This document shows, piece after piece, positions 18,974 through 40,228 of a stretch of 64,000 bases of DNA. The DNA comes from Candidatus Eiseniibacteriota bacterium (GTDB taxonomy: Bacteria > Eisenbacteria > RBG-16-71-46 > JABDJR01), in assembly GCA_963762255.1 (NCBI GenBank), contig CAVXKA010000003.1:384001-448000 (forward strand). Direction: 5' to 3'. Position numbers and translations under genes: made by a program. The notes under the pieces were generated by a model. It did no database searches and was not told the DNA's origin. It was given only the letters and a program-made list of their open reading frames with translations. Each line of letters begins with the position of its first letter. Position 1 is the stretch's first letter.

Positions 18974-21900
18974 CTACGTGCCCTGATCATCGGTACCGAC
19001 GCCATCGGTCGGCGGTTCAGACCCAGCAAGGACTTCGATCGCGAACGGATTCAGTCGGACCGCCTTCGTGCAATGGGGGCAACATCCAAGGAGCCGGGCA
19101 TCCGAGAAAGCGGAATCCGGCAGGTCCAAGCATGGTGATTGACCCGGTCGGAGGGCGTCCATGTTGGATACGATGAGGGCCACCGCGGGGCTGGAGATTG
19201 CGGATTCTTGGTTACACCAGGGACAGTGGATGGAGAGTGAGCCCGTGCGCGCCGAGACCCGGGAAGCGGTGCAGATTCCGGGGCCAAGGGGGACACCCAC
19301 AAGGTCGTAAGTCGACACCTCACCGACTCTAGTCCCGCCAACTGCGCGGTTGAGACGGGCAGAGAAGGCAAGGGCCTCCCACGGCGCAGTCCCCTTCACA
19401 ACGGTCCGGGGCTGTCCGCTCTCCACGTCCCACACTCGCAGAGTCTCGTCGTCACTCCCCGACACCGCGCGGCGACCGTCCGGCGTCACGCTCACGCTCC
19501 TGACCCCCGAGCTGTGGCCTTCCAGCGTGCGCAGGCAGCGTCCGCTCTCCAGATCCCACACCCGCAGCGTCTCGTCGTCACTCCCCGACACCGCGCGCCG
19601 ACCGTCCGGCGTCACGCTCACGCTCCCGACCCCGAGCTGTGGCCTTCCAGCGTGCGCAGGCAGCGTCCGCTCTCCAGATCCCACACCCGCAGCGTCTTGT
19701 CCCAACTCCCCGATACCGCGCGCCGACCGTCCGGCGTCACGCTCACGCTCCCGACCCCGACGCTGTGGCCTTCCAGCGTGCGCAGACACCGCCCGCTCTC
19801 CAGATCCCACACCCGCAGAGTCCGTCGTCACTCCCCGACACCGCGCGGCGACCGTCCGGCGTCACGCTCACGCTCCAGACCGTCGACGCTGTGGCCTTCC
19901 AGCGTGCGCAGGCAGCGCCCGCTCTCCAGATCCCACACCCGCAGCGTCCCGTCGATCACTCCCCGACACCGCGCGGCGACCGTCCGGCGTCACGCTCACG
20001 CTCCCGACCCGCCAGCTGTGGCCTTCCAGCGTGCGCAGGCACGCGCCGCTCTCCAGGTCCCACACCCGCAGCGTCTTGTCCCAACTCCCCGACACCGCGC
20101 GGCGACCGTCCGGCGTCACGCTCACGCTCTCGACCCGCCGAGCTGTGGCCTTCCAGCGTGCGCAGGCACGCGCCCGCTCTCCAGATCCCACACCCGCAGC
20201 GTCTTGTCCCAACTCCCCGACACCGCGCGCCGACCGTCCGGCGTCACGCTCACGCTCCAGACCGTCGACGCTGTGGCCTTCCAGCGTGCGCAGGCACGCG
20301 TCCGCTCTCCAGATCCCACACCCGCAGCGTCTTGTCCCCACTCCCCGACACCGCGCGGCGACCGTCCGGCGTCACGCTCACGCTCCTGACCCCCGAGCTG
20401 TGGCCTTCCAGCGTGCGCAGGCAGCGCCCGCTCTCCAGATCCCACACCCGCAGCGTCCCGTCGTCACTCCCCGACACCGCGCGGCGACCGTCCGGCGTCA
20501 CGCTCACGCTCCCGACCCCCGAGCTGTGGCCTTCCAGCGTGCGCAGGCAGCGCCCGCTCTCCAGATCCCACACCCGCAGCGTCTTGTCCCAACTCCCCGA
20601 TACCGCGCGGCGACCGTCCGGCGTCACGCTCACGCTCCCGACCCGACCGAGCTGTGGCCTTCCAGCGTGCGCAGGCAGCGTCCGCTCTCCAGATCCCACA
20701 CCCGCAGAGTCCCGTCGTCACTCCCCGACACCGCGCGGCGACCGTCCGGCGTCACGCTCACGCTCCAGACCGTCGACGCTGTGGCCTTCCAGCGTGCGCA
20801 GGCAGCGTCCGCTCTCCAGGTCCCACACCCGCAGCGTCCCGTCGATACTCCCCGACACCGCGCGGCGACCGTCCGGCGTCACGCTCACGCTCCTGACCCG
20901 CCGAGCTGTGGCCTTCCAGCGTGCGCAGGCAGCGTCCGCTCTCCAGATCCCACACCCGCAGCGTCCCCTCGTCACTCCCCGACACCACGCGGCGACCGTC
21001 CGGCGTCACGCTCACGCTCCCGACCGTCGAGCTGTGGCCTTCCAGCGTGCGCAGCAACGCGGGCTTCGGGTTGTAGTGGATCTCAGAGGACCAGTGCTGC
21101 AGGAGCATGGGCACACCTAGGGAATAAATGGACTCAGCGACCACCGACCTCACGGGATCGCCAGGTGGACGGTTGAAGGCGTGCTGGGCCACGAACCCCG
21201 GCCACCCGCCGAACTCCAGTAGGGGGTAGCACTCCGATTCGACGAAGGACCCGAAGGCTCGCAATCGGTCGAGTCGCGTCGGGTTCTCGACGATCCGCCG
21301 GCACTCTTCCTCCAGCCGTTCATCGCTCCACGGCTCGACCGAAGGGATGATCTCCGGAAGCGGAGGCGTCTCCTCGCCCCCGTTCCACTTGCGAGCGTAG
21401 TCCACAATCTCTTGCGTCCATCGCGCTGCCCGCGCCTCATGGCGCTCCAGCTCCAGCACCTCCGCTTGCGCCTCGGGCAATGCGGCCAGGACTTGGTGAT
21501 AGTCGCGAATCAGATCGAAGATCTGGCCCGTCCGGATTCGGTCTTCGATGTAGCTCAGATCGGTCAGGAGCGTCTCCAGCTTGTCCCACTGGTGAGTCGC
21601 GATCAGGTGGGCCGGCAAGTGGGCCAGTGTGTAGGCGGATAAGTGCCTTGGCTGCGCCTCGAATTCCCGCCAGCATTGCCTGGCGAGCCGGTTCTGCCCC
21701 TCTTCCATCGACGTGGCGAAGTCGGCGCTGGCCTCGGGATCGGTCAGCCAATCGGCCAGGCTCTGGTGAAACAAGCGCCTCCCCCCGGCGTCGCCGCCCA
21801 AGAACTGCGATAGCGCGGTGAGGCCACGTTTCGTCGGGTGAGGGGCCATACCTGACGCCGCACGCAAGAAGTCGTCCGGCAGTGGCCCCGATGCCGCGAC

Positions 21901-23259
21901 CAGGCAATCCAGCAGCGGTAGCACCTCACTGTCGTAGGCGACACGGTCCTTGAATCGTTTGCGAAACATCGCATGATAGAGGCCGCCTAGTTTTCGGGGT
22001 AAGGCCCCTAGGTCGTCCAGGTCCATCCGCGTCCATGGGTCGCCTTCACCGAGTGCGTCAAGCGTCAGCCTGGCGAACAGGAAGTTGCCGTCCGCCAGTT
22101 CGGCCAACTTCGACGTCGTGCCCGCCTGGCGGGGAACCCTGCCGGACTCATAGAGTCCATCGAGCCGCCGTTTGATGTAGGCAGAAACATCGCGACGGTT
22201 CGGCTCGCCGCCGGCATCGAGATGGCGGCATTGAATGCCGTCCACTTCGAATCTCGCGAGGATGCTCCGGTCGGGCCGGCTTGTGACCACGATGCGCAAG
22301 AAGTCCGGCACGCGGGCCGCCGAATCGGCCAATAGATCCGCCAAGCCGAAGCCAATTTCGGCGACTGATTCATCCAGACCATCCACGATGAAGGTCCAGG
22401 GCTGATCCACCTGGAGCCGGTCGCGGATCTTGCGGAGCGGATCGGCAACCAATGTCCGGAAGAGCGACTCGGGGGGATCCGCCCAGTCGGGAGAGACGGG
22501 CAAGGCCTCCATCACCTCACGATAGGCCGAGAACTGGGCAGCCAGTTGATAGACCAGACCGCGAAGCCAAGAGTCAGGTCGACAAGACTCGATGATCGAG
22601 CGCGAGCAGAAATGGACGCCGCGCACATTGAGCCGCACGCTCATCTGCGCCGCCGCCGCGCTCTTGCCGAACCCTGGTTCAGCGGTAACCAGCAGCAAGC
22701 GAGAACCCGGGGCCTCCACCCACTCCTGAACTTGCTCGAAAAGCCATTCGCGGCCCGTGAAGCTGCCCCCGTGACGGGCGAGTTCTTCTTCGAAGTACCG
22801 TTGCTGCAGGTCGGCCCACCACACCTTGGATGGCCGCGCTGATCCCCAGTCTCGAAAGCCCATGCCTTTGCCGGCCGCAACTTGATCGATGGCGGCCGGA
22901 AGCTCTTTGAACGCCGTGTCGGGATCCGTGGCGGCGTCGATGTAGTTAAGGGACACCACCTGGATGGGAGGAGTCACGTCCGCGATGCGTACGGGGATGA
23001 TCAGCTTCTTGTAGGACTGCGCGAACAGGATCTCGTTTCGACAGAACCCTTCGGGGCGAAGGCTCCAGGGCGACAGTACGGCGATCAGCGCGTCGCTGTC
23101 CGTGATGCCCATCTCGATGCGGAGGTCAAACGGAGCACCGACGGGAATACCGTTCTCGACGTCGAGCCACGGTTCGTGGTTCTGCTGCCGCAGCCACTTA
23201 GCAAGCTGTCCTGCAAACGCCGTTGCGTCGTTGCGGCCGTAGCTGATGAAGATGCGCAT
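18974..23259 (-). CDS. TIR - NACHT-like NTPase - WD40 repeat NLR-like protein with C-terminal Zn-ribbon; frameshifted within the repeats
   Basis: TIR (IFISYGR..FCRNEI), FTGREWL, Walker A AEPGFGKS, Walker B FIVDGLDE, VVTSRP, LFHQSLADWL, 13 near-identical WD40 units, and a CPWC...CPHC tail. Confidence 0.88.
19413..21056 (-). repeat. Tandem array of 13 near-identical units of about 126 nt encoding WD40 repeats
   Basis: The motif gtggccttccagcgtgcgcag recurs 13 times at 125-128 nt spacing. Unit consensus: LRTLEGHSxxVxSVSVTPDGRRAVSGSxDxTLRVWDLESGRC. Confidence 0.95.
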
Positions 23260-23302: not shown

Positions 23303-26203
23303 CTACGACCTTGCGGAATGGGTACTGAGAGACGAACTCATGCGCGCCCACGTGATCCGGTAGCCGGCGAGCCCGACCACGTCCGGGAAGTGCAATACGG
23401 AGTCCCTGTCCTTGTCCTGGTCGGCGTCGGGCAACTCGGCGTAGGGGACAAGCGCCGGATGCCGCCTCGCGGGGTCATCGCGCTTCTTCCCGTGGCGCCA
23501 GCCGCTCCGGAGCCGCTGATCCATCCAACCGTCGTGCTCGGCCTCGGCCAGGCGCTCCAAGTGGTACTCGAGATGCTTGCGGATGGCGGCAACCGACTCA
23601 CTCGATGCCTCCTCACTAGATGCCTCGCCCCCCTCCAGACGCAGTCCCGCAAGCGCGAGGGCCGCTGGAATGCGCCGAGCAGCCGCGCGGTTGTCTTCTT
23701 TGTCTACAGAGTCGAGATCCGCGTACGGCTTGTCAAAACGGCGTGCGACCTTCTGCTGCTTGTCTCCGGACAAGATGAGGTAGTTCTTGTGGATCGCCGC
23801 CGCGAGAGCTTCTATGACATCGTCCTGGCCGAAAGGCGCGTGCTCGTCAAGGATCTTGTCGAAAGGCGGCAGGTTGACGTGCATCCCGAGCTGTGGCCGA
23901 GGCGGCAGGGATGAGCGCCGGATGGCCTGCCCTTCGTATGAAGGCTTGAGCGACTGCACAAGCTTCTCGACGGACCGTGCGCCGTGAGTGTACTTGGGCA
24001 CTCGCAGAAGCGCCGCGAGCAGCTCGGGGTCGAAATCGAGCCGAGCATCCTTCGGGACACCCAAGTGCGCTCGAATCAGCAGCGCACGACGAAGGGGCGC
24101 ACAAACGTCGTTCTTTTCGGACATCGGGTCGTCACTACCATCCACGTCAGCAAGACCTTCGCTTCTTGGGTTGGGACCGAGTACGTTGAGATAGGCATCC
24201 AGGCGACTGTGGAAGTCAGGACCCTTCTTGAGTTCGAACTTTCGCCACGCGTCCATGTCGAATCGGGTTGTACCGGGCTTTGGCGGTCCAAACTCCTCGA
24301 ATGTGTGGCTTGTGGCGCCGGCGAAAATGAAGACGCACTTCCCGACGGCGTGACTGATCTGCCCTTCCTGGAAACGCCCGTCCTGCATAGGGGCGAGGAG
24401 AAACTGCAGCCAGTCATACTCACGCGAATCGAATTCGTCCCAGAATACGACCGGAGTGGCTCCACCCAACACAGCGTCGCGGACTTGGTGGAATGCCCCA
24501 ATCAGGTCTCCCACATCCTTGAACTGCGACAGATTGAACTCCCGCCACGCTTCCTTGCCGAAGACGCTGTTGGCGAGTTGGTGCACCCCAAAGGACTTCC
24601 CCGCACCTGGCGGGCCAAAAACACCGATAGAGAGCGGCCTCTTCGCCCCACTGTCCTTCTGGTACTGAATCATCAGCCGTTCGATGCTGCGAAGCGCCTC
24701 GATCTCGAATCGGTCGGCGGTAAGGAGTTTCCCGAACCGTGCATGCGGCAATCGCGCGATGGCGGCTTCACCCCAGAGCACCGTCTGAGTTGCCAATCCC
24801 AGCAAGGACGGCAAATCAGTGGAGCCGAACCGTGATTGAGACATCTCGACGATCTGCCAGACTCTCCTCTGGTCGGGGTCCTTCGGACTCCCGGCATACG
24901 GAGCCCGTTCTTTGTCAGTCCACGGCACCGGTGTCTCCGCGAACTCGTTGCTGCCGGCCACAATGACCTCGGCCAGGCGCTTCGCTGGAAACCCCACCGG
25001 CAATTCCTCGGCAATGGGATGCGGATGCTCTGAAACGAGACCGTGACCCAGTTTCCGAAGATCTCTCATGCCACAGAGTCCGGCCTTGACGGCCGCGCTG
25101 ATCTTGGGCTTCTCCGGCCCGCGCATGATGGCTCGGACCAAGGCCGCGACCATGCAGGACATGTAGCCAAAGGCTTCACCGGGGATCGAACGAGCCCACG
25201 CACCCTCCGCGCCATCGGCATCGAAGACCAAAGTCGCATGTGGCTCCGGTCCGGTGTTGTCAAGCCAGAGAGCGCCATCAGCAGAGAATGTGACAATGAG
25301 GTGCTGGGGCCTTGATGCCATCTCCCGCAAGTTGCGGTCGGATCCCAGCGCCTTATGCAACTCCATGACCGTCCGTTCCCAGGAAAGCCCCGAACCCAAC
25401 TGAGCATGCTCCTGCCTCAGCTCATGCGCGGAGAGGACGACAATCAACTTCTTCGAGTGTTCTTCCTTCAATCGGTGCCACAGATCTCCCTGGCACACCG
25501 GGGCGCTCATCTTCAGGATAATCCACTCGGGCTGCTTCCCCGCTCCCGGGGGAAGCAACCAGCACTCCTCGGCGGCCTGATGACGAAACATGAAGCCTGC
25601 ATCGTCCAGCACAAGCACCCTTGGAGTCGCGGGTGACGGGTCATCAAGCTCCGGCGTGCAATCGGTACAGGGGCCAGTTCCGTCATCGGGGGAGGATTCG
25701 TCATGACCGTAGCCCATCAGGAGGTCCGCACGCCAGACCTGCTTCGGATTCCGGGGACTTGTCGGATCCAGAGGAAACGGCTTCCAGACCGCAAGTGCGT
25801 GATGGCCGCAGGGAGTCTTGTCCGCAGGGGGCATCTTGAGCGGGCACTCCACTTCCCACTGAGCCTCCGGTGCCGGTTTGTGGTTTGCCAGTTCGCCTCT
25901 CGCCTTTACCAGCGCCGTCTCTGCCTCGCTAATCTCCAGTTCCACTCCTCCGTTGCACCGGAGTTCCTCGAGCTTCGCCTCGGCATCCTGGACGGCCTTC
26001 TCTCTTTCCTCCTTCTCATTCCCCGCCACTTTCTTCGCACGTGCAATCGCGGCGTCGATGAGACGAGTCAGCGCCATCGCGCCCCCGGGCTCTCGGACTA
26101 CCCTCACCCCCTGCCGTTCAACGGCAGAAGCAGTGTGGCGCTTGCCTTCATAGATATGGTGATCCACTACCACGTCGCCAGTGACGAGAATCTTGTCTGT
26201 CAT
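23303..26203 (-). CDS. Ribokinase/PfkB-like N-domain + P-loop ATPase + RyR repeats
   Basis: PfkB/HldE-like start KILVTGDVVVD and PGGA; Walker motifs GPPGAGKS and VVFWDEFD; RyR motifs AEAEHDGW..GWRHG..RDD..RHPALVPYAEL..KDR. GGAGG RBS before MTDKIL. Confidence 0.8.
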   Translation of the reverse strand: MTDKILVTGDVVVDHHIYEGKRHTASAVERQGVRVVREPGGAMALTRLIDAAIARAKKVAGNEKEEREKAVQDAEAKLEELRCNGGVELEISEAETALVKARGELANHKPAPEAQWEVECPLKMPPADKTPCGHHALAVWKPFPLDPTSPRNPKQVWRADLLMGYGHDESSPDDGTGPCTDCTPELDDPSPATPRVLVLDDAGFMFRHQAAEECWLLPPGAGKQPEWIILKMSAPVCQGDLWHRLKEEHSKKLIVVLSAHELRQEHAQLGSGLSWERTVMELHKALGSDRNLREMASRPQHLIVTFSADGALWLDNTGPEPHATLVFDADGAEGAWARSIPGEAFGYMSCMVAALVRAIMRGPEKPKISAAVKAGLCGMRDLRKLGHGLVSEHPHPIAEELPVGFPAKRLAEVIVAGSNEFAETPVPWTDKERAPYAGSPKDPDQRRVWQIVEMSQSRFGSTDLPSLLGLATQTVLWGEAAIARLPHARFGKLLTADRFEIEALRSIERLMIQYQKDSGAKRPLSIGVFGPPGAGKSFGVHQLANSVFGKEAWREFNLSQFKDVGDLIGAFHQVRDAVLGGATPVVFWDEFDSREYDWLQFLLAPMQDGRFQEGQISHAVGKCVFIFAGATSHTFEEFGPPKPGTTRFDMDAWRKFELKKGPDFHSRLDAYLNVLGPNPRSEGLADVDGSDDPMSEKNDVCAPLRRALLIRAHLGVPKDARLDFDPELLAALLRVPKYTHGARSVEKLVQSLKPSYEGQAIRRSSLPPRPQLGMHVNLPPFDKILDEHAPFGQDDVIEALAAAIHKNYLILSGDKQQKVARRFDKPYADLDSVDKEDNRAAARRIPAALALAGLRLEGGEASSEEASSESVAAIRKHLEYHLERLAEAEHDGWMDQRLRSGWRHGKKRDDPARRHPALVPYAELPDADQDKDRDSVLHFPDVVGLAGYRITWARMSSSLSTHSARS

Positions 26204-26290: not shown

Positions 26291-26977
26291 TTACTTGGTA
26301 CCGGGCCCGGTGGAGCCCCCACCCACCACCATCCCCACCCTCTCCCCCACATCCATCATCACCATCTCGGGAAAGTCAGCATCCCGTAGGTACGCCATGA
26401 CCGATGCGACGCCAATAGACACCCCCGCCATCGCCACATGCGGGTCGGGCGAATCCGCACAGGTTCCTCCCCAGGACTCGTCATCGCCGTAGAGGGTCGA
26501 CAAGTACTCCTTCAATCCCTCCCGTCCCCGCACCGTGTGACAGCGCACCACGGTCCCCCCGATCCGAACGTCCACCAGCAGACCCAGACTGCGATCCTGC
26601 AATAGCGCCTCGGCAGCCCGCCGCCGCGATTCCATCGTATCCATCCCGAACAGCACGATCGGTCCTGAAGGCCCAACCGCGCCGTCGGGGTACTTCGCGG
26701 GGATCCCCTCGATGGCCACGCCGGGGCACACCTCGTGGATCAACCGCGGCAGCGCCTCCACCTTCAACCGCCGGCGACGCACGTCCGCAGCGCGATAGAA
26801 CTGCACCCCAAGATTTCGCGCGGGATCCAGACGGTCATGGTCGTAGACGCGAATCGACCGGATGCCGGCCATGGCAAGCGCAAGGCACGCGAATGAACCG
26901 GTGCGCCCCGCCCCGATCACACTGACACGCGCCATTTCGAGCCTGCGCTCGAACTGCGACGGTCGCTGGCGGCTCAT
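26291..26977 (-). CDS. ThiF/E1-family ubiquitin-like activating enzyme
   Basis: Motifs VSVIGAGRTGS, VYDHD, NLGVQFY, KVEAL, MDTMESR, VDVRIG and YLSTLY..ESWGGTC; no Zn-binding CxxC pairs. ATG overlaps the upstream TGA. Confidence 0.88.
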   Translation of the reverse strand: MSRQRPSQFERRLEMARVSVIGAGRTGSFACLALAMAGIRSIRVYDHDRLDPARNLGVQFYRAADVRRRRLKVEALPRLIHEVCPGVAIEGIPAKYPDGAVGPSGPIVLFGMDTMESRRRAAEALLQDRSLGLLVDVRIGGTVVRCHTVRGREGLKEYLSTLYGDDESWGGTCADSPDPHVAMAGVSIGVASVMAYLRDADFPEMVMMDVGERVGMVVGGGSTGPGTK

Positions 26978-27711
26978 GTCCCACTCCCCTGTTTTTCGCA
27001 TGGCTCCTCCGGAATCGCCTGGTATCGCACAATGCGGATGTGTCGCCGCACATGCGGCGGGATCTCGCCGAGGCGTCGCCGCACGATCGTGCACCCCACC
27101 CGCTGCGCTGCGCGCAAGACGAGCGGATGACACGGCCATGTGCCGTCGTCTGAGAACGCCACGGCGGGGCGTCCCACCGCCGCAAGCACCGCCGCCAGTG
27201 CGATCCTCTCGTCGGGCATGATGTACTCGAGCTGCCGTCGCTCTCGTTGGGATAACGCGCCGTAGATTCCCCCACCGACGCCCAGTCCGAAGGATTCAAT
27301 GCGCATCGGGTGACCAGATGCCGTCAGGAACTCGGCTCGAGAGGCAATCTCCGTGAGGCGGGCAGGCGGTGCGAGGTACGCGCGCACGCAGACGCGCTGG
27401 ACGCGCACGCCCGGATACTGTCGCTCGCGATCTAGGATCTTGAGGCCGGTCACGAACCGCGCTGGGTTCGAGCCATCCACGTCGGGCCTCTCGCACCACG
27501 TTTCGTCACCCGGCGGTGATACGAGTCGGATGGCGGTTGGCACGAATTCTTCCCAGGCCGGCCGCGCGTTCGCGTGATCCTGCAACGCGAATGCTAAAGC
27601 CGCCGCATTCCCGCCATCGGACTCCGGCTCCACCCGCACCGACGCCGCCACGAACGCCAGAAACTGCCGAAGCGCGAATACGCCGCGGTCGCCGGGAAAG
27701 TCGTTGGCCAT
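26974..27711 (-). CDS. Hypothetical protein (245 aa) in the Ubl operon
   Basis: ORF MANDFPG.. overlaps its neighbours on both sides (TGATG and ATGA), with a GGAGG RBS; no recognised motif. Confidence 0.7.
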   Translation of the reverse strand: MANDFPGDRGVFALRQFLAFVAASVRVEPESDGGNAAALAFALQDHANARPAWEEFVPTAIRLVSPPGDETWCERPDVDGSNPARFVTGLKILDRERQYPGVRVQRVCVRAYLAPPARLTEIASRAEFLTASGHPMRIESFGLGVGGGIYGALSQRERRQLEYIMPDERIALAAVLAAVGRPAVAFSDDGTWPCHPLVLRAAQRVGCTIVRRRLGEIPPHVRRHIRIVRYQAIPEEPCEKQGSGT

Positions 27712-28313
27712 CAGAGATTCCTCCGAGCCCAGGCAAGGGCCACTAGAACAAGACCGCACAGGTCGAGACGCTCGACGGCAGTTTCGAGGAGAGGGGTGGC
27801 CTCGCCTCGGCATGCGCCGTGACGGCCCGGCTGGATGAACATCGACTCCTGCCCCGCCGCAGTGGACCTGCGAATGAAGACCGGGAAGTGAGGAGCCGGT
27901 GGAAGCGGAAGACAGATCTCGAAAGCGTTTCCAGGGGCTGAGGCGCCTTCGGCCACAAGCGGGCGCACGGTCGCGGTCACCGCGGCCTCGGCCACCACCA
28001 ACCGCTCGAACGGGACTCCATCAAGCAGGACCATCAACCGATTCAGCTCCCGCCTGGCGCGAGGGAGAGGAAACCGGCGCGCGCGCTCGACGCGGCGCAT
28101 CGCGAGCGTCACATCCGCCATGTCGAGATCCCATACCTCGGGCTTCGGACCTATCTCACCGAGCAGAGGCTTGCAGCACGTGAGGAACTCGCGTTGCGCC
28201 TGAAGACCGCGAGCCGCCGCGCCGCAGAACTCCTGCAGGAACGCCGCCAGAACCTCGCGCGCTTGCTCAATCGACTCCCGGGGAGACCCCGGTTGAAGAA
28301 CCACTTCTTCCAT
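27711..28313 (-). CDS. Hypothetical protein (200 aa), possible divergent E2-like conjugating enzyme
   Basis: ORF MEEVVLQPG.. has a helical N half and a C half FEICLPLP..PVFIR..GACRGEA..LLE..DLCGLV; it lies between the Ubl and E1 genes. Confidence 0.6.
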   Translation of the reverse strand: MEEVVLQPGSPRESIEQAREVLAAFLQEFCGAAARGLQAQREFLTCCKPLLGEIGPKPEVWDLDMADVTLAMRRVERARRFPLPRARRELNRLMVLLDGVPFERLVVAEAAVTATVRPLVAEGASAPGNAFEICLPLPPAPHFPVFIRRSTAAGQESMFIQPGRHGACRGEATPLLETAVERLDLCGLVLVALAWARRNL

Positions 28314-28407
28314 GGCGTGTCGTGCGCTGGATGGACCGGCGCCGGCGGCAGCGGAAACCGCCACCGGCGCCGGTGCGCATTCCTCCCTTGTTTGTTGTGC
28401 TCGCCGA

Positions 28408-28659
28408 TCAGCCGCCGCGGATCCGCGGGACGTAGGCGAGCGTGACGTCGTGGGTGTGGTCCACCGGCTTGTCGAGCTCGGTGGGCGCACCATCCAGGAA
28501 CAGATCCCAACCCTTGTCGCGCGGCGTCGTACCGGCTGCGCGGATCAGGTCGGCCGCGGTGACCCCTTCGAGCAGATCAACGCTGGCCTCGACACCTTCA
28601 CCGAGCACCCGGACCGTCGCACGATGCGGTCGGGCACCTCGTTCGGGAAACGTCCCCAT
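28408..28659 (-). CDS. Ubiquitin-like (beta-grasp) protein ending in Gly-Gly
   Basis: 83 aa with the pattern VRVLG..VTAADLI..WDLFLDG..VTLAYVPRIRGG*; strong AGGAGG/GGAG RBS. Confidence 0.85.
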   Translation of the reverse strand: MGTFPERGARPHRATVRVLGEGVEASVDLLEGVTAADLIRAAGTTPRDKGWDLFLDGAPTELDKPVDHTHDVTLAYVPRIRGG

Positions 28660-28747
28660 ACTCCACTCCTTCCTCCTGAACGATCGGGCTCCGCGCCTTC
28701 GCGGGCGCGAAGGGCTACGGCAATGCCCGCTTGCGAGGTATGGATCC

Positions 28748-28762
28748 GCAAGAGCGATGCCA
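28748..28762 (-). promoter_or_regulatory. Sigma-54 (RpoN) -24/-12 promoter of the Ubl operon
   Basis: Minus strand reads TGGCATCGCTCTTGC, i.e. GG-N10-GC matching TGGCACG-N4-TTGC, about 90 nt upstream of the Ubl start and next to a sigma-54 activator gene. Confidence 0.75.
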
Positions 28763-28892
28763 TCGGTCGGCCGAGCGCGTGATGTGTGCGCAACACGATG
28801 CTGCGCACGTGACTCAGGCGGAGGGTGGAGGGACGGTCAGAGCTGCCGGGTTGCCTTGATCTACCCGATCTTCGGGTGAACAAGGCCGACGA

Positions 28893-29942
28893 TCAGGCGG
28901 GCTGCTTGGGGGGGCGCTTGAGTCCCGCGCGACGCATGCGGTCGCGCACGGTGTCCGGCTTGACCTTGAGCAGGCGCGCGGTTTCGGAGACGTTCCAGTG
29001 GCAGAGTCGCAGGACGGATTCCAGATAGCAGCTCTCGAATCTCTCGGCCGAGAGATCGTGTCCCCCGCCGTCGATTCGCGAGTCGGACGCGGCGCGGGGC
29101 CTTCCGAACGCCGCCGGAGGCAGATCGCCGATCTGGATTACTTCGCGCCGGCCGGCATGGTAGAAGGCCCAGATGACGACCTTCTCCAGCTCCCGGATAT
29201 TGCCCGGCCAATCGTACGCGAGAAGAGATTTCAACGCCGCCCGCGAGAAACGTCGAGCGCGATACGTCTTTCCTGCCTCGCAGGCGAGGCGGGAGAGGAA
29301 CGTCTCTGCGAGGCCGGGGATGTCCTCCCGCCGTTCGTTCAGGCCCGGCATCTCGATCGTGAACGTGCTGATCCGGAAGAAGAGGTCATCGCGGAACTCG
29401 CCGCGATCGACCCGTTCGGTAAGGTCGCGGTTCGTCGCCACAAGCACGCGCACGTCGCTCTTCACTTCGCGGTTCCCGCCGAGGCGCCGAAACCGCCGGT
29501 CCTGGAGAAAGCGCAACAACATCACTTGAGTTAGCGGATGGATGTCGCCGATCTCATCCAGAAAGACGGTGCCGCCGTCGCTTCCCTCGATGAGCCCGAC
29601 GCGACGCTGCCGGCCGGCATCGGTGAAGGCATGGGCCTCGTGCCCGAAAAGCTCGCTGTGGACGAGGGTCTGGGAAAGCCCTGCGACCGGGATGACGCAA
29701 AACGGCGCGTCCTTGCGTCGGCTGAGCCGATGGATCACTTCGGCCAGGAAGGACTTGCCTGTACCGCTGCTGCCGGTGATCAGGACGGTCTCTTCCGTCG
29801 GAGCCATCCATGCCACCGCGCGTAGCACCTTGCGCGCCGCTTCGCTCTTCCATACCGGTGGTAAGAGGCTAAGGTCCGCGCAGGCGAGTGCCTCCACGGT
29901 GCGGGTGACGATCTCGGACTTGGGTTCGAGGTTGGGGGCCAT
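28893..29942 (-). CDS. Sigma-54-dependent enhancer-binding protein with no N-terminal sensory domain
   Basis: Motifs GSSGTGKS, SELFGHEAHAFTDA (GAFTGA variant), GGTVFLDEIGD, ATNRDL, FRDDLFFRI and WPGNIREL, plus a C-terminal Fis-type HTH (NVSETARLL). Only about 25 aa precede the AAA+ region. Confidence 0.92.
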   Translation of the reverse strand: MAPNLEPKSEIVTRTVEALACADLSLLPPVWKSEAARKVLRAVAWMAPTEETVLITGSSGTGKSFLAEVIHRLSRRKDAPFCVIPVAGLSQTLVHSELFGHEAHAFTDAGRQRRVGLIEGSDGGTVFLDEIGDIHPLTQVMLLRFLQDRRFRRLGGNREVKSDVRVLVATNRDLTERVDRGEFRDDLFFRISTFTIEMPGLNERREDIPGLAETFLSRLACEAGKTYRARRFSRAALKSLLAYDWPGNIRELEKVVIWAFYHAGRREVIQIGDLPPAAFGRPRAASDSRIDGGGHDLSAERFESCYLESVLRLCHWNVSETARLLKVKPDTVRDRMRRAGLKRPPKQPA

Positions 29943-30017
29943 GGTGAGGGGGATGTTCCATGTTTCGGGGATGAGGTGTCAACCTGAGGGGGGACTGCGC
30001 AGTGCCGCCTGTCTGGC

Positions 30018-32883
30018 TCAGAGTCCTCCTGTCGATTGACGGAAGATCGAGACGACCTCAGGGCCGAGTTCCTGAAGCCTATCGAGGATTTCGGAGCGCG
30101 ACATGTCCATTTGCCTCAAGAGCGCCGCGTAGTTCATGACGGCTGCCTGCAGGTTCGGGTGCGGATGACCCGTGGCACGGGTGAACTGGAGAAGGATGCT
30201 CACGTGGCGACGACTCAGCGGTTCGGCCTCCACCAGCCGGTTCGTGTCCTGGAGCAACTGAGCTAGGTTGTTGAGGGCGCTCGCGACATTCGGGTGATCC
30301 CGTCCGAGCCTGTTCTCAAAGATCGCCAGTGCGCGGCGCACGAGGGGTTCGGCCTCTCCCTGACGCCTTGCGCCCTTGAGCAAGCCCACCAGGTTGTTAA
30401 GGCGGATGGCGACCTTGGGGTGGTCGTTCCCGTACCTCTGTTCGTCGATCACCAGCGCGCGGCGCATGAGGTCTTCAGCCTCCGCCGGCCGGTTCGTGAC
30501 TTGGAGCAAGAGAGCCAAGTTGCTGAGAGCGGTCGCGACGTTTGGATGGTCCCGTCCACGGATTCTCTCAAAGATTGCAAGCGAGCGGCGGTAGAGAGGC
30601 TCAGCCTCTCCCAGCCGGCCCGTGGCCTTGAGCAATTGGGCCAGGCTGTTGAGAGCCATCGCGACCTGGTGTTGATCACCGCCACAGCCCTGCTCGCGAA
30701 TCGCCAGCGCGCGGCGCATGAGCGGTTCGGCCTCCGCCAATCGGTTTGTGGCGTAGAGCAAGCCCGCCAAGTTATTGAGGCGGATGGCGACACTTGGGTG
30801 GTCGCTCCCGGAGCTCCGCTCGTCGATCGCCAGCGCGCGGCGCATGAGCGGTTCGGCCTCCGCCAGCCGGTTCGTCGCCTGGAGCAATTGAGCCAGGTTG
30901 CTGATAGCTGTCGCGACCACTGGTTGATCCTCTCCGAGGTCGCTCTCCGAGATTGCCAACGCACGGCGCAAGAGCGGTTCGGCCCGTGTCCACTCAGCTA
31001 GGGTGTACCACCATAGCCCCACTTGACTGAGCAGCCATGCCGCCCATGGATAGGCCCCCTCTGCCCATGCCTCGGCCAAGGCATCCAGCGGCTCCAACTC
31101 CCAGCGCGCCTCCTGCCACCGCGTCGTCGTCTCGAGAACGACGACCCGGTCGCGCACGAAATTGAGTACGCGCTCTCGCCTGGCGGCCAGATGATCAGCC
31201 GACAGGCTCTGCTGCATCAAATCCTGCACCAACCGATGCACGCGCACGACGCGCGCCTCGCCTTCTTCGCCCTCTCCGCGGGTGATGAGCGCCAGCCGCC
31301 AGAGCATGCGGCAGATCCGATCCCACGGCTCCTCGTACCCGGGGGACACGGACACGCCGATCTCGGGGAAGTCACTCGCCACCAACTCCCGCAGCCACGG
31401 CAGCGGCACCGCATCAGGGGCCAGAAGTGCCGCGTACTCCATCGCCCGGCGCCCCGCCGGTTCCAGTCCCTCAATGGAAGGCCCGAGGACGGCGTCCAAC
31501 CGGCGCTCATGATCGTGCTGGCGAAGGGTTACCTCGCGATCCGCGGCCAAATCATCCAGCGCTTCGAGGTCTTCCAGCCCGAGCCGCTCCAGGAAGGCCG
31601 GGTACGTCACGCCGGCATGCACCTCCAGCCACGCCGCCACCAACTCCACCGCCAATACGAACCCGCCCAGCCGTCTCACGATGCGGTGCGCCGCATCACG
31701 TTCGGCGTCGTCCGCGAATGGTCGGTGCTTCTCCAGCAGATCCACCGCGTCCACTTCCGGAAGCTCGCCCAATGTGACCCAGTTGCCATGCGCCCCGGCG
31801 GGAGGCGCGAGGCGCGTGGTCGCCAGCAGGTGAAGGCTTGGCCCCAAACTGGTGAGGGCATCTGTCTGCCTGGGGGACAGCAGGTCGAGGCCGGTCACGT
31901 TGTCCAGCACTAGGAGGATGCGTCCATGGCTATCAAGTCGTTGGCGGAGACAGTCGTAGATCGCCGCGAAGTGCCGATCTGGGCTCTTGCGCTCCTCATC
32001 GCTGATCCGGTCCCGAAACCGATTGCCCAGGATCAACGCCGCATCGCGTAGGCTCGTCTTGCCCTCGCAATGCACCAGAAACCGCCCCCCCGGATACGCT
32101 CCTGCGAAAGCGTGGGCATAGGTGAACGCGAGCTCGGTCTTGCCGATGCCGCCCAGACCGTGCACGCCGGTGATGACCCCTGCCCGGTCGTCCTTGAGTC
32201 GCTCGCGCAGGTCGAGTAGCTCGTCCAGGCGCCCGGAGAAGCGCCTGTTGTAGGCGGGTACATCGCTTTCGCTCTCGGCCGCAAGATGAACCTGCGTGGC
32301 GCGCTCATCGAGGTCGCGGGCCAGTGCGGCCAGAACGCAGCGCAAGTCGTCCTGACGCAACGCCTCCAACCCAGTGCGGTAGAACGGTTGCACGGCATTG
32401 AACTGCCGCCGGCGCAGCTGCTTCACCACCGGCGCGGCGGTCTCGATGAACGCCTCGTGCGGTAGCGGCCGCCCGCACAGCTTCGCTACCTCGCGCGCAA
32501 CCTCGTGCTCGTCGATCGCGCTGTCGAGCCCCGGTACCTCGACGATGTAGATGGGCGCCGCACCGGCGGAGAGGATGTGCTTAGCGATCTCCAGGTCGAT
32601 CCAGGTGCGCCACTCGCGCCGGCACCACTCGCTGGCGAAGTAGTTCGGCGAGAGGAAGGCAACGAACAGCCGCGAATGCGCCAGTCCGTCGTGGATGCGG
32701 AGCCGCCAGTCGTCCAGGCCGTGGATGTCGATCCTTGTCGAAGAAGCAGGTCAGCGAGCGTCCACCGGTGAACTTCCGGTGCTCCGCGAGCAGTTCCTCG
32801 ACAAAACCGCTGATCCATCCCTCGCGGTTGTCAGCGCGGGCGTAGGAGACGAAGAGATCGTAGCGATCGTGGTCAAGCGGCAT
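30018..32883 (-). CDS. TIR - NB-ARC-like STAND NTPase - TPR protein; one frameshift near 32730
   Basis: TIR YDLFVSYARAD..FFDK | DIHGLDDW..SPNYFASEWCRREW continues in frame into the 803-aa ORF. Motifs GLGGIGKT and LLVLDNV, then about six 42-aa TPR units (VA..LNNLA.LL..TNRL.EAEPLMRRALAI). Confidence 0.88.
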
Positions 32884-32974: not shown

Positions 32975-33847
32975 TCACAGGAATGCCAGCAGCGTCGCGA
33001 CCCCTTGACTCTGGAAGTACTGCAGGATCGTCCTGGTGCCCGGACTGTACCCGTCCCATAACAGGATCGCCAGATCCGACTTCACGCAGAACAGAGCGTC
33101 TCGTTCGCTCGGCCCCTTCATGCCCCTTGGAATCTGTTCCAGGGAGGCATCAAGAAACCCGAGCTTGCCTCCCCTGACAAGCTCTCGAAGTTCTGGCGCA
33201 CAGTCAAAACGATGGTAACCGACGGTAGTGACCCGCTGACTCTGCTCGACCAGGAAGCGCGCCGCGGCAATGTCTATGGTTCCAACCGCCCCGACGAGCC
33301 ACTTAGTCGTCTCCGAGAGATACGGTGTCAGAACGCGTTCCACCCTCCGACGCGTGACCACTTCGTCTGCGGTCATCGTGCCGGTCACAGAGATCGTCCG
33401 CTGCTCCGCAGCCTTCACCGACGCCAGTTCTGTCGCGCCCGACCCCTTCAGTGCATAGCGGGAGAGAGTTTGCCGAACGGCTTCAGCCAGTCTCTCCGCA
33501 AGCCGGGCCTCGCTTCCGATCGAGTACTTCAGGACACGGTGGGACTTCAGATCGAAGGGGAGTTCGTCTATGTCTTGCCCGATGAGGATCGTCGGCTTGC
33601 CCAGGGCCATTGCATAGCCTGTCTCCCACATCACGTTCGGGGTGTGGCCGCTGACGTTGGCTATGCAGAACGCGGCTTCATGGAGACCGATGAGGATATC
33701 ATCGGTGATGCGTCCCGCCGACTTCACGTCCTTCAGCCAGTAACACTCGAAGACCGCCCCCGGAACCGCCGAAGTCGCCACCTTCTTGACAACGTCGAAC
33801 ACGGGATCAAAAGCCGTTGCGAAAGGCATGATGACAAAGCACTTCAT
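32975..33847 (-). CDS. Nucleoside 2-deoxyribosyltransferase/TIR-like domain fused to a SLOG-like domain
   Basis: NDT-like CFVIMPF, PNVMWETGYAMALGK and LPFDL; SLOG-like ISVTG..VGAVGTID..ERD..SDLAILLWDGYSPGT. Confidence 0.75.
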   Translation of the reverse strand: MKCFVIMPFATAFDPVFDVVKKVATSAVPGAVFECYWLKDVKSAGRITDDILIGLHEAAFCIANVSGHTPNVMWETGYAMALGKPTILIGQDIDELPFDLKSHRVLKYSIGSEARLAERLAEAVRQTLSRYALKGSGATELASVKAAEQRTISVTGTMTADEVVTRRRVERVLTPYLSETTKWLVGAVGTIDIAAARFLVEQSQRVTTVGYHRFDCAPELRELVRGGKLGFLDASLEQIPRGMKGPSERDALFCVKSDLAILLWDGYSPGTRTILQYFQSQGVATLLAFL

Positions 33848-33978: not shown

Positions 33979-37313
<3,335 letters not shown>

Positions 37314-37316
37314 GGC

Positions 37317-40228
37317 TTATTCCTCGGTCTCCCCGAACAGTGCCGCCCTGCTCGGCTCTCGGCTTGCCGCCCTCGCGGGCGAGCCGCGCGATCTCCGGCC
37401 AGCTCTGGACGAGGCCGTTGTAGGCGAGCGCCTCGGCCGCGCGCTTCTTGCGCTCGCAGAGGGTGTAGAGGCGGTAGGCCAGCTCGCGGGCGATCTCGGC
37501 CTTGGCGCCGAGCTTGGCGACGAGCTCCGCCGCCGCGCCTTCGCCGCCGCTTCGAGCACGCGGATCAGGTGGTGGACGATCTCCCACGCGGTGAGGCGCG
37601 GGTCGGTCGCCGGGTCCCAGTCGGCGGGCAGCTCGTCGGGCTCGCAGCAGCCGCACCTTGCCGCGGCTTCGATTCGAGGATGCCGGCCTCGACCATGCCG
37701 GCGACGCTCGTGTTCTTGGCCTTGGAGAGCTGTTCGGCCACGCCGTACTCGCCCTCGGCGAAGCCCGACTGCTCGAACCAGGCCAGCGCCCAGCGGCTGT
37801 CGGCGTCGAAGTCGCCCTCCTGCTCGGCCAGCGCCTCGTCGAGGGTCTGGTTGATGAGCGCCAGCGCCTCGCGCACGGTGAGCGGCTTGCCCTCGGCGTC
37901 GAGCACCTTGGCGTAGCGGGTGTAGACCGCCATGCCCGGGCCGATGGCCGCCTGCGCCAGGTCCACCGGCGCGATGTTGCCGCGCTGCAGGTGGGCGAGC
38001 GCCGCGGGCAGCTCGGCCTTGAGCGCGGTGACGAACTCGCGGCGCGTGGCGGTGGGCGCGTCGGCGGCGCGCGGGCGGCAGACGAGGACGATGCTGGAGG
38101 CGAGGGCGTTGGTGTCCGATGCCGCTCATGCGGTCTGCCAGTCTCCGTCCGCATCGGCCAGGTGCCGCTGATGGCGAAGCCGGCGCGGATCACCGCGTCG
38201 AGGAAGGTCTCCCAGCCGGTGCTCGCGGTGCCGTCGTCGCCGTCGCTCTCCGCCTGCTTGAAGGCGTAGTAGATGGTGACCGGGAAGGCCGGGTGCGCCT
38301 GCTCGGCGAGGCGGTGCATCGCCTGCGTCATGCCGTCGAGGAAGAACGCCTCCGCCTTCTCCTTGCTGCCGTGGCGGTAGGGCGTGGCGACCAGCTCCTC
38401 GGCCTTGGGCACGGCGAGCGTGGCGAAGAGGTCGGGGAAGACGGGCCTCAGCGAGCGGCGCAGCCAGACGTAGAAGAAGTCCGACAGGTCGGCGTAGCCG
38501 ATGTTGTCGTAGTAGGGCGGATCGGTGGAGACGACCTTGTCCGCGACTGATCGTCTGGTGCTGCGCATCGGCTTGCTGACGCGATGCCCGGCGACGTGCG
38601 CCGGCAAGCGCTTCGAAGCACCTTCGCGATCCACTCGACATGCTGCCACGAAGTTCCCGCTCGAGCTCTGCAGAACGGATTCGCCTCCGCGAAGTCCCAG
38701 GTCATCGGAATCGCCTGCCGGCCGAAACGTGCTGCGACGATGCTCGTCCTGTCTGGCATCCAACGTGCAGAGCGACGTGTCCGTAGTCGCAGCCTTGCTC
38801 AACGCGCGAACGCCAGATACACCGCCACCGCATCGGCGTAGGCGGTGGCGCCGGTGCCGCCGTCGCGCAGGGGCTTGCCGTCGTCGGGCAGGCCGGCGGC
38901 GAGCGCGTCGCGCTTCACCCGCTCGCGCGCTTCCTGCACCAGGTCGGAGAAGGTCGTCAGCGCCACGAGCTGGCGGGGGGTGAAGAGGTCGCCGCACGTC
39001 GTCATCCCGTAGTGGCTTCACGCCGAGATACTGCGTGCTGCCGGAGATCGTCGACCTCCGGCTTCCACGTCCGGCTTCGCCTTGCGCGCAACCGCCTCCA
39101 TGCTCCGGCGTCGGCGCGAGATAGACCCGCCCGCGCTCGCCCTCGGCGACGATCGCCATCAGCCGCGCGCCCATGCGCCCGGCCTTGCCCTCGGCCTTGA
39201 TGTAGTCGCCCGCGATCGGCGCGCCCGACATCAGGCACCGGAAGTTCGCGCCGCGCGCCAGCTTGGTGCCGCTCTTCGCCGCCTCCGCATCCTTCGGCTT
39301 CCCCACCTTCACCGTGAAGCGGTAGCCGCCGTCCTCGATCACCGGCTCGACGTACGCCTCCTTGCCCGCCTTGGTGGAGAGCATGAAGGTCGAGGCGAGC
39401 GGCACGTCCACCTGCGCGAAGGCCGGGTTCGGGCTCTTCACCGTGCGCGCCCAGAGCCAGGCGATCACGGTGAGCTTCTGGCCGACGTACGGCTTCAGGT
39501 CCGGCCGCTCCTTCGCCATCTCGGCCGTGACCTCGACCTTCGGGTAGAGGTGGCCGATGCGCTTCTCGGCCTCGTCGCGCATCCACTGGCCGTAGTAGCG
39601 CACGTCCTCGGCGAGCCCCTGCGCGCCCTTCCACTCCCGCGCGATGAGCGTCTTGTCCTCGCGCGCCTCGGGGTTCACCGGCGGCTTGCCCGCGAACTTC
39701 GGCGGGATCTCGATCATCGCCTTGTTGATCAGCACCGCCACCGGGTTCAGGTCGCTGGCGTAGCTCTCGAGCCCCAGCCGCTGCGCCTCCAGCGGCAGCG
39801 CCCCGCCGCCGGCGAAGGGGTCGTGGAAGGCGGGCAGCTTGTGCCGGTCGAACAGCTCCTTCGCCCGCGGATGGTCGGCGTTCTCGGCGCAGGCGCGCCG
39901 CCAGCTCTGCCAGATCTCGTCGCGCGCCTGCCTGCAGCACCGTCTCGTTGGTGGTGTTCTCCCACAGCACCAGGTCTTCGATGATGCGGAAGAGCCGCTG
40001 CCGCTCCTTCTCCTGCTTCTTCTCGGTCGGGAAGAGGTCCGGGTGCGCCGACGGGTCGTCCACCATCTGCGCGAAGATCACCGCCCGCGCCGCCGCCAGC
40101 GGCCGCCGCGCCCACCACAGGTGCAGCGTGCTCGGGTGCCCGTGGCGGATCGACTTCTCCCGCGCCGAGGCCTTGTTGATGGCCTCGAGCGGCAGGGCGA
40201 CTTCGATGAGCTTCTTCTTCGGGGTCAC
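37317..40228 (-). CDS. DUF1156-family adenine DNA methyltransferase; several frameshifts
   Basis: Motifs [54 protein letters not shown] and YNGLVQSW, spread over shifting frames. Confidence 0.88.

Follow-up and report, generated by a model that had tools for sequence, protein, structure and literature searches.

How does a sigma-54 activator without a sensor domain come to be controlled, and does it serve the promoter-like element that lies beside its own gene? The question is raised by a locus in a 64,000-nucleotide (nt) stretch of the genome of a Candidatus Eiseniibacteriota bacterium (here called the window, meaning the whole stretch of DNA that was analyzed). In it the gene for P0001, one of the enhancer-binding proteins of bacteria (bEBPs), stands directly ahead of a co-directional cassette that begins with the gene of a ubiquitin-like protein (Ubl). 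Our analysis favours the reading that P0001 is a functional sigma-54 activator minus its receiver domain and that a -24/-12 element found 130 nt past the end of its gene is dedicated to it. Among the points in favour of this reading, the domains, Walker motifs and arginine fingers of the predicted protein are intact; its probability, and that of the activator-promoter pairing being genuine, is put at roughly 0.6.

Architecture and class of the activator

P0001 is the only bEBP gene in the 64-kb window. The gene and the parts of its predicted product are as follows.

28893..29942 (-): bEBP gene P0001, 349 amino acids, with AAA+ sigma-54 interaction domain, lid and Fis-type helix-turn-helix (HTH)
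P0001 residues 32-197: Sigma54_activat (PF00158), Pfam E-value 6.9e-56, 189 bits (cut-off 20.2), match covering profile positions 4-168 of 168
P0001 residues 203-285: AAA_lid_14 (Pfam)
28929..29045 (-): HTH_8 DNA-binding domain, residues 300-338, 9.3e-08, 32.1 bits against a cut-off of 22
29616..29633 (-): codons of the L1 loop HAFTDA (residues 104-109), which replaces GAFTGA

A tail of 31 residues precedes the AAA+ domain, no Pfam domain was found N-terminal to residue 32, and the open frame upstream of the AAA+ match extends for at most 43 codons. A preliminary description of this DNA, made from the letters alone, had taken the activator to consist of AAA+ and HTH only, and the Pfam domain content bears this out. 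Walker A, Walker B and the arginine fingers are intact in alignments to solved structures; residues 32-277 align with the ZraR structure (3.4e-65) and also with NifA, FleQ, NtrC1 and PspF. By this domain content P0001 is architecturally a group 4 bEBP, alongside PspF and HrpR/S. In a quick maximum-likelihood tree the clade to which it belongs sits on a long stem within the receiver-bearing NtrC-type activators (Shimodaira-Hasegawa-like approximate likelihood ratio test, SH-aLRT, 92), and P0001 resembles a response regulator from which the receiver has been lost.

The -24/-12 element and its statistics

Sigma-54 promoters have the consensus TGGCAC-N5-TTGCW. A sequence of this type was located between the bEBP and Ubl genes, and two palindromes are found near it.

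28762..28748 (-): sigma-54 type -24/-12 element TGGCATCGCTCTTGC, TGGCAT-N5-TTGC
28786..28808 (-): palindrome GTGCGCA-N9-TGCGCAC, a candidate site for binding of the activator; its centre is about 60 nt upstream of the predicted transcription start
28915..28949 (-): second imperfect GC-rich palindrome, a possible distal site, inside the 3' end of the bEBP gene and 74% complementary to 28786-28820

The element lies 130 nt beyond the last base of the bEBP stop codon (28893) and 88 nt ahead of the Ubl ATG (28659), and its GG-to-GC spacing of 10 nt matches the consensus; the earlier observation of a motif about 130 nt past the stop codon and pointing into the Ubl gene is confirmed. In the window the pattern TGGCAY-N5-TTGC has this single match (0.19 expected; at least one match in 15 of 100 shuffles). 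The genome (4.14 Mb, 67% G+C) contains 21 matches on both strands, and the motif by itself is weak evidence, because between 9.4 (Markov-1) and 13.1 (mononucleotide) of these are expected from composition. For the 233-nt spacer the expected count in the right orientation is 2.5e-4 to 3.5e-4, and five of the 21 genomic matches lie at most 800 bp from one of the 23 bEBP AAA+ stretches of the genome (0.25 expected, P = 3.8e-6). Judged by these matches, an activator gene adjoining its promoter is the usual layout in this genome. The proposal that activator and target promoter form a pair is thus supported by position, orientation and statistics, with a chance of about 3e-4 for the spacer and the clustering of 5/21.

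No second acceptable -24/-12 element was found in the gene cluster; with at most two mismatches allowed, a single further match to the motif occurs there on the minus strand, at 27581..27596, and it lacks the GG. The host genome has one rpoN gene, which is complete, with activator-interacting, core-binding and DNA-binding domains present, and whose nearest relatives (79-82% identical) are in metagenome-assembled genomes (MAGs) of Candidatus Eisenbacteria. The palindrome at 28915..28949 is not significant alone, there being 17 inverted pairs in 1.4 kb. An Rfam search of 28300-30100 gave no match, the fold of the leader is unremarkable (z = 0.08), and a consensus scan around the bEBP gene called no sigma-70 promoter or terminator. 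Elsewhere in the same genome, at C3 position 871400 (+), the sequence TGGCACCGCTCTTGC differs from TGGCATCGCTCTTGC by one letter and has the same spacer within unrelated flanks; this site is 782 bp from another bEBP gene.

The HAFTDA loop

The L1 loop of P0001 reads ELFGHEAHAFTDAG. HAFTDA keeps the Ala, Phe, Thr and Ala of GAFTGA, and the L1 insertion is of full length. Beyond P0001 the clade comprises seven clusters, 72-94% identical and 320-353 amino acids long, none with a sensor domain; below them identity falls to 45%. Six of the seven have HAFTDA and one HAYTDA, so that His occupies loop position 1 in 8/8 clade members (7 HAFTDA, 1 HAYTDA) and, the Phe-or-Tyr position aside, Thr is kept. 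Outside the clade the first position is Gly in all 22 other bEBPs of the genome and in 113/113 of the nearest database bEBPs, and a six-frame scan of 160 bEBP loci gave a non-Gly loop start in 0/162 loops. The Asp at position 5 is another matter: 5/22 of the other genome bEBPs have it (GAFTDA three times, GSFTDA and GAYTDA), as do the 11 GAFTDA loops among the 113. The loop had been called unusual as a whole; this holds for the His at position 1 and not for the Asp at position 5, which is ordinary. A study of the D. vulgaris regulome lists GAFTDA, GAYTDA and GAFTHA among the variants judged compatible with activation (PMC4641369). HAFTDA, HAFTGA and HAYTDA were not found as protein motifs in the literature searched, where the 6 hits are unrelated words, and in the sequences compared a clade-specific His in the otherwise Gly-invariant first loop position is a new point.

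Two further bEBPs of the same genome, at C1:339082-339585 and C3:129051-129551, have at most 78 and at most 49 codons before the AAA+ domain, respectively. Their loops are GSFTGA, and they may also be sensor-less.

Proposed mechanism and control of the activator

The genes that follow the element, and the one that precedes the activator, are all on the same strand.

30018..32883 (-): TIR-NB-ARC-TPR gene, directly upstream of the bEBP gene, 75-nt gap
28408..28659 (-): Ubl gene, 83 amino acids, product ends RIRGG; SAMP2 match 1e-4, under cut-off
27711..28313 (-): P3, 200 amino acids; helical hairpin plus alpha/beta domain, invariant Cys (HGxCRG), C-terminal WARRNL
26974..27711 (-): P4, 245 amino acids; start overlaps the P3 stop (TGATG)
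26291..26977 (-): short E1-like ThiF adenylyltransferase, 228 amino acids; ATGA overlap with the P4 stop
23303..26203 (-): P6, about 966 amino acids; N-terminal half without known family, weak AAA match, C-terminal RyR domain
20758..23259 (-): TIR-NACHT(NPHP3_N)-WD40 protein, 833 amino acids; last co-directional gene

The domain content, the motif with its statistics, the rpoN gene and the conservation of loop and gene linkage are shown by the analysis; promoter use, start site, binding site and transcript extent we infer as follows. Sigma-54 RNA polymerase would hold a closed complex on TGGCAT-N5-TTGC, and P0001, bound nearby through its Fis-type HTH, would open it with ATP and the HAFTDA loop. 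Transcription would then start near 28736 and pass through Ubl, P3, P4 and E1, and the transcript would probably take in the AAA/RyR and TIR-NACHT-WD40 genes as well. Without its activator ATPase a sigma-54 promoter stays silent, and the conjugation and immune cassette would therefore be under tight on/off control.

This leaves the control of the activator. PspF and HrpR/S, which likewise have no regulatory domain, are described as controlled in trans by proteins (PMC7175178; PMC3791423), and by analogy control of P0001 by a product of the Ubl operon or by the upstream TIR-STAND-TPR protein, as first proposed, is plausible. That a protein partner gates the activator in trans in the manner of PspA and PspF, with P4 or P3 the likeliest candidate, can be advanced tentatively.

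The best-surviving alternative accepts the pair as genuine and dispenses with the partner: the activator would be constitutively active and controlled by its amount or lifetime, with its level set by its own weak sigma-70-like promoter or by read-through from the NLR-like TIR-NB-ARC-TPR gene. Its case is that P0001 has no sensor domain and that the genes are co-directional, with short gaps and no terminator-like sites found in the spacers between cluster genes; upstream of the bEBP ATG, at about 29973, there is a perfect match to TTGACA. The clade, moreover, nests among receiver-bearing NtrC types, and an AAA+ core that had lost its receiver and nothing else should be unregulated. A constitutive activator, however, makes the sigma-54 arrangement pointless unless its level depends on a signal, the consensus scan called no sigma-70 promoter at the TTGACA, and the known domain-less activators are under protein control, so that gating by amount, like the partner-free account as a whole, is somewhat unlikely.

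The Ubl-P3-P4-E1 cassette

A strong Shine-Dalgarno sequence (AGGAGGAAGGAG) lies upstream of the Ubl ATG. The families of P3 and P4 had no match in Pfam, NCBIfam, PADLOC or PDB profile searches; Pfam gave no match on 27 members of the P4 family either, and atlas searches for both proteins returned weak, unrelated leads only. The structural model of P3 (predicted local distance difference test, pLDDT, 83.4) has a long helical hairpin and an alpha/beta domain, with HGxCRG in a low-confidence loop of that domain. Fold searches with this model returned weak E2 rows (Cdc34, UBE2L6 and CdnG-E2; E about 1), and P3 is possibly E2-like. Their other returns were only generic helical hairpins with Z about 8, including ESCRT-III/CHMP rows, which are not counted as support for a PspA-like fold. 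For P4 the AlphaFold2 model is unusable (pLDDT 35.9), and about 30 representative relatives were found among 1.84 billion proteins. No JAB peptidase, DUF6527 or recognizable E2 was found in the cluster at Pfam E <= 0.01. From gene content and order, Ubl-P3-P4-E1 appears to be an undescribed ubiquitin-like conjugation family.

Orthologs and distant copies

Homologs of the clade bEBP and of P3, in three cases also of P4, were recorded on contigs of identical size (276865, 45865, 8649 and 7772 nt); the clade is also recorded on a metagenome contig of 18607 nt. We take these identically sized entries to be the same contigs, which would mean that the linkage of the bEBP to P3 and P4 persists as P3 diverges; on the 7772-nt contig P3 is down to 40% identity while the bEBP is still at 73%. 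At about 93% identity, a DNA contig of 3343 nt is collinear from P3 through Ubl and the spacer to the bEBP. Its six listed indels all fall at 28210-28385, and none of those listed is in the 28660-28892 spacer.

Close orthologs of the bEBP, P3 and P4 were found in metagenomes only, and none in species-representative genomes, viral contigs or plasmids. A search of genome contigs gave only generic bEBPs at most 53% identical, a metagenome scan with a generic peptide pattern gave bEBP relatives only 38-50% identical, and in the genomes of 60 relatives (G054 among them) nothing exceeded 46% identity. A match to back-translated HEAHAFTDAG on one contig was rejected; the frame is not a coding one, and a PilT-like gene runs antisense to it. 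P3 is absent from GTDB representatives and IMG/VR, and both P3 and P4 are absent from the plasmids searched. Among 206 genomes of the phylum only that of the window has P4, the 205 others being without it, and 167 other loci, 166 of them retrieved with the window's bEBP, have no Ubl-operon genes.

A P4 profile searched against a Fibrobacteraceae MAG and 150 relatives gave matches in 6/151 genomes, four of which have the same core, namely a Ubl ending IRGG, P3 with its invariant Cys, P4 and a short E1.

L259 8286-10953 (+): distant Ubl-P3-P4-E1 core
L260 4131-6812 (+): distant Ubl-P3-P4-E1 core
L261 8980-12012 (-): distant Ubl-P3-P4-E1 core
L262 9058-11714 (-): distant Ubl-P3-P4-E1 core

Across the cores P3 has one invariant Cys and a C-terminal LA[WY]xRxN. 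In none of these four copies does a -24/-12 element lie upstream of the Ubl gene, and no bEBP was found within about 9 kb of them either. Since the four cores lack both, activator and motif occur together or not at all, which fits their acquisition as a pair.

Upstream of Ubl in two of the copies, at about 8080-8210 of L259 and about 11800-11930 of L262, a GTCCC-T-rich-GGGAC hairpin and a repeated TCTGAG...TCTGAGAA are shared. These shared elements look like a different, conserved regulatory site.

Evidence against the pairing

Several observations weigh against P0001 and the element forming a functional pair. The -12 part of TGGCATCGCTCTTGC ends TTGCG and not TTGCW, and composition alone would account for about half of the 21 genomic matches. 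The start of transcription is itself a prediction, near 28736 and about 12 nt downstream of the GC, with a leader of about 77 nt; the candidate palindrome at 28786..28808 is unique in the genome, yet has by rough estimate a chance of about 0.2 in 130 nt. Contigs from the RNA libraries of a relative cross the entire spacer (X16 record 29, 28645-28922; X12 record 11, 28019-29984), and if they are RNA, some Ubl transcription would be read-through from the bEBP gene and not from the sigma-54 start; such libraries may contain DNA, their contigs cannot reveal a transcript start, and the parts left uncovered in X15 and X16 are uninformative. The joint presence of activator and motif rests on one positive locus, that of the window. 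Finally, His at loop position 1 was seen in 0/22, 0/113 and 0/162 other loops, and according to PMC7175178 most GAFTGA mutants fail to activate.

These last two points, with the 9 to 13 genomic motif matches expected by chance, are the case for a second alternative, in which His-for-Gly uncouples P0001 from sigma-54. P0001 would then be a sigma-54-independent regulator or repressor, and the motif would be coincidental or served by another of the 22 bEBPs. NtrC of Rhodobacter and Caulobacter is not known to carry GAFTGA. Proteins of the bEBP family that act at other promoters exist, a reported example being PexR of Myxococcus. On the other side, the L1 insertion of P0001 is of full length and its Phe and Thr are kept, the motif stands in the right spacer and orientation directly behind the sole bEBP gene of the 64-kb window (about 3e-4), and in this genome such motifs as a rule adjoin bEBP genes (5/21). 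Uncoupling is accordingly judged improbable, and a functional activator with its own promoter remains the preferred reading.

P4 beside AAA+ ATPases

Two loci from Fibrobacteraceae-type genomes have P4 in other company.

L258 463-11285 (+): P4 homolog without Ubl or E1, beside Pup ligase, sigma-54-type AAA+, RelA_SpoT+SLOG+RyR, TrkA_N+RyR and TIR+PEGA proteins
L250 310-2807 (+): P4 homolog without Ubl or E1

In both, the P4 homolog is followed directly by a sigma-54-type AAA+ protein, and the cluster with P4 and AAA+ also has a Pup ligase, two RyR-domain proteins and a TIR protein. RyR domains, present in P6, turn up again in the L258 cluster. As relatives of P4 are repeatedly found next to sigma-54-type AAA+ ATPases, P4 would be the likeliest partner of the activator, and we treat it as a lead; P3 would come next, on the long helical hairpin of its model. 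The recurrence may be independent and may reflect a non-transcriptional role, and P4 may serve protein-conjugation conflict systems as a common adaptor. A specific kinship of P0001 with the Fibrobacteraceae-type AAA+ proteins was considered and rejected, as the tree does not join them.

The weakest alternative is that P0001 mainly does the work of the conflict system itself, remodelling or unfolding P4, Ubl or their conjugates, with control of transcription secondary or absent. It can draw on these two loci, whose gene content overlaps that of the window in P4, sigma-54-type AAA+, RyR and TIR, but is very improbable, since their AAA+ proteins lack an HTH, begin with an N-terminal domain of 165 residues, have loops without Phe (GASTGA and GAATNV) and form a separate long branch, whereas the window clade falls inside the NtrC-type activators (SH-aLRT 92) and P0001 keeps an HTH above the Pfam cut-off and a promoter beside its gene.

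A more specific form of control by a partner can be sketched by analogy with PspF and PspA. In it the immune module would contain a closed feedback switch: a family-less operon product would restrain the HAFTDA activator, or be required for it, until infection or conjugation titrates that product, and His-for-Gly would insulate the pair from the 22 other activators. Taken as a whole this is a speculative and rather unlikely proposal.

Upstream genes and island setting

The TIR-NB-ARC-TPR gene upstream of the bEBP corresponds to the TIR-STAND-TPR protein named as a possible partner in the preliminary description; the gene exists, but it is not one frame. Its TIR start (YDLFVSYARADN...) is in one frame and the rest in another, with the change near 32725, inside the TIR part, which points to an assembly error or else to a pseudogene. 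Beyond it lies a gene for a TIR-like protein.

32975..33847 (-): TIR-like protein, 290 amino acids; PADLOC TIR effector 4.3e-11

Further upstream, at 34188-40077 (-), HmaB- and HmaC-like genes (PADLOC 5e-221 and 3.5e-203; 70-73% G+C) appear to be split over several frames, and may represent a broken Hma system or assembly frameshifts. By its gene content the setting of the bEBP and the Ubl cassette is a defence island.

Comparison with known systems

PspF and HrpR/S share with P0001 an AAA+ domain plus HTH and the lack of a regulatory domain, and PspF is, like P0001, encoded beside the sigma-54 promoter that it serves. In psp the arrangement of activator and target is divergent. P0001 is in tandem with its target, which is a Ubl/E1 cassette where PspF serves membrane-stress genes, and its loop is HAFTDA; that it is a PspF ortholog is ruled out by NCBIfam TIGR02974 (221.6 bits against a cut-off of 443.55). 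PspA, the first product of the PspF-activated operon, is reported to inhibit PspF in trans via a surface loop (PMC3791423; PMC7175178).

The second comparison is with RtcR. The RtcR-like proteins with a CARF domain in CoCoNuT types II and III have been proposed as sigma-54 activators that head a co-directional defence array (PMC10542128), and RtcA and RtcB, products of the RtcR-activated operon, are reported to bind RtcR (PMC9650030). P0001 shares with the RtcR-like CARF-bEBPs the 5' position in a co-directional defence array. Its best PADLOC match is RtcR_PspF2 (7.9e-85, model positions 171-480 of 481, that is, the AAA+ and HTH after the CARF part), a match that spans only parts common to all bEBPs. 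The CARF domain of RtcR is absent in P0001, which hence has no nucleotide or RNA-end sensing, and NCBIfam NF038308 gives 262 bits against a cut-off of 650. In the literature, the links of sigma-54 to anti-phage operons that were found are RtcR-type cases only.

Regulators of Ubl operons are known as well. CapW/BrxR is given for 8%, and CapH+CapP for 31%, of 544 Bub operons (PMC11601596), and CapK/CapS have also been reported. As here, each is a dedicated regulator directly upstream of a Ubl operon in a defence island. They are, however, sigma-70 repressor/protease switches responsive to DNA damage, whereas the control proposed here is positive, ATP-dependent and exerted through sigma-54. No link of sigma-54 to a Ubl operon was found in the literature, where supplementary tables, such as Table S1 of the Bub preprint, might list one.

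The cassette itself shares with Bil (BilABCD) and Bub (6E/DUF6527) a GG-ended Ubl and an E1-like adenylating enzyme in a defence island. It differs from both in that no JAB, DUF6527 or recognizable E2 was found (at the Pfam threshold given above), in an E1 of only 228 amino acids, and in the presence between Ubl and E1 of P3, with its invariant Cys, and P4, neither of known family. On these comparisons both the cassette and its proposed control through sigma-54 are probably new.

Significance

If P0001 were an ordinary activator beside an ordinary promoter, the value of the finding would be limited to annotation. Some of what the locus offers is more concrete and open to direct test: an activator-promoter pair of an uncultured phylum (Eisenbacteria) that would be defined well enough for reconstruction in a model host, an activator occurring in nature in which His takes the otherwise Gly-invariant position 1 of GAFTGA, and the apparent four-gene family Ubl-P3-P4-E1, which includes two middle proteins without known fold. 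For ubiquitin-like operons of bacteria and other defence operons of high cost, the regulators described are for the most part sigma-70 repressors that DNA damage releases. The preferred reading, if true, would put a Ubl conjugation cassette, together with its TIR-NLR-type genes, under a positive switch with near-zero background. Were the feedback switch also true, a new defence system of ubiquitin-like/NLR type would be licensed by enhancer-dependent transcription through sigma-54.

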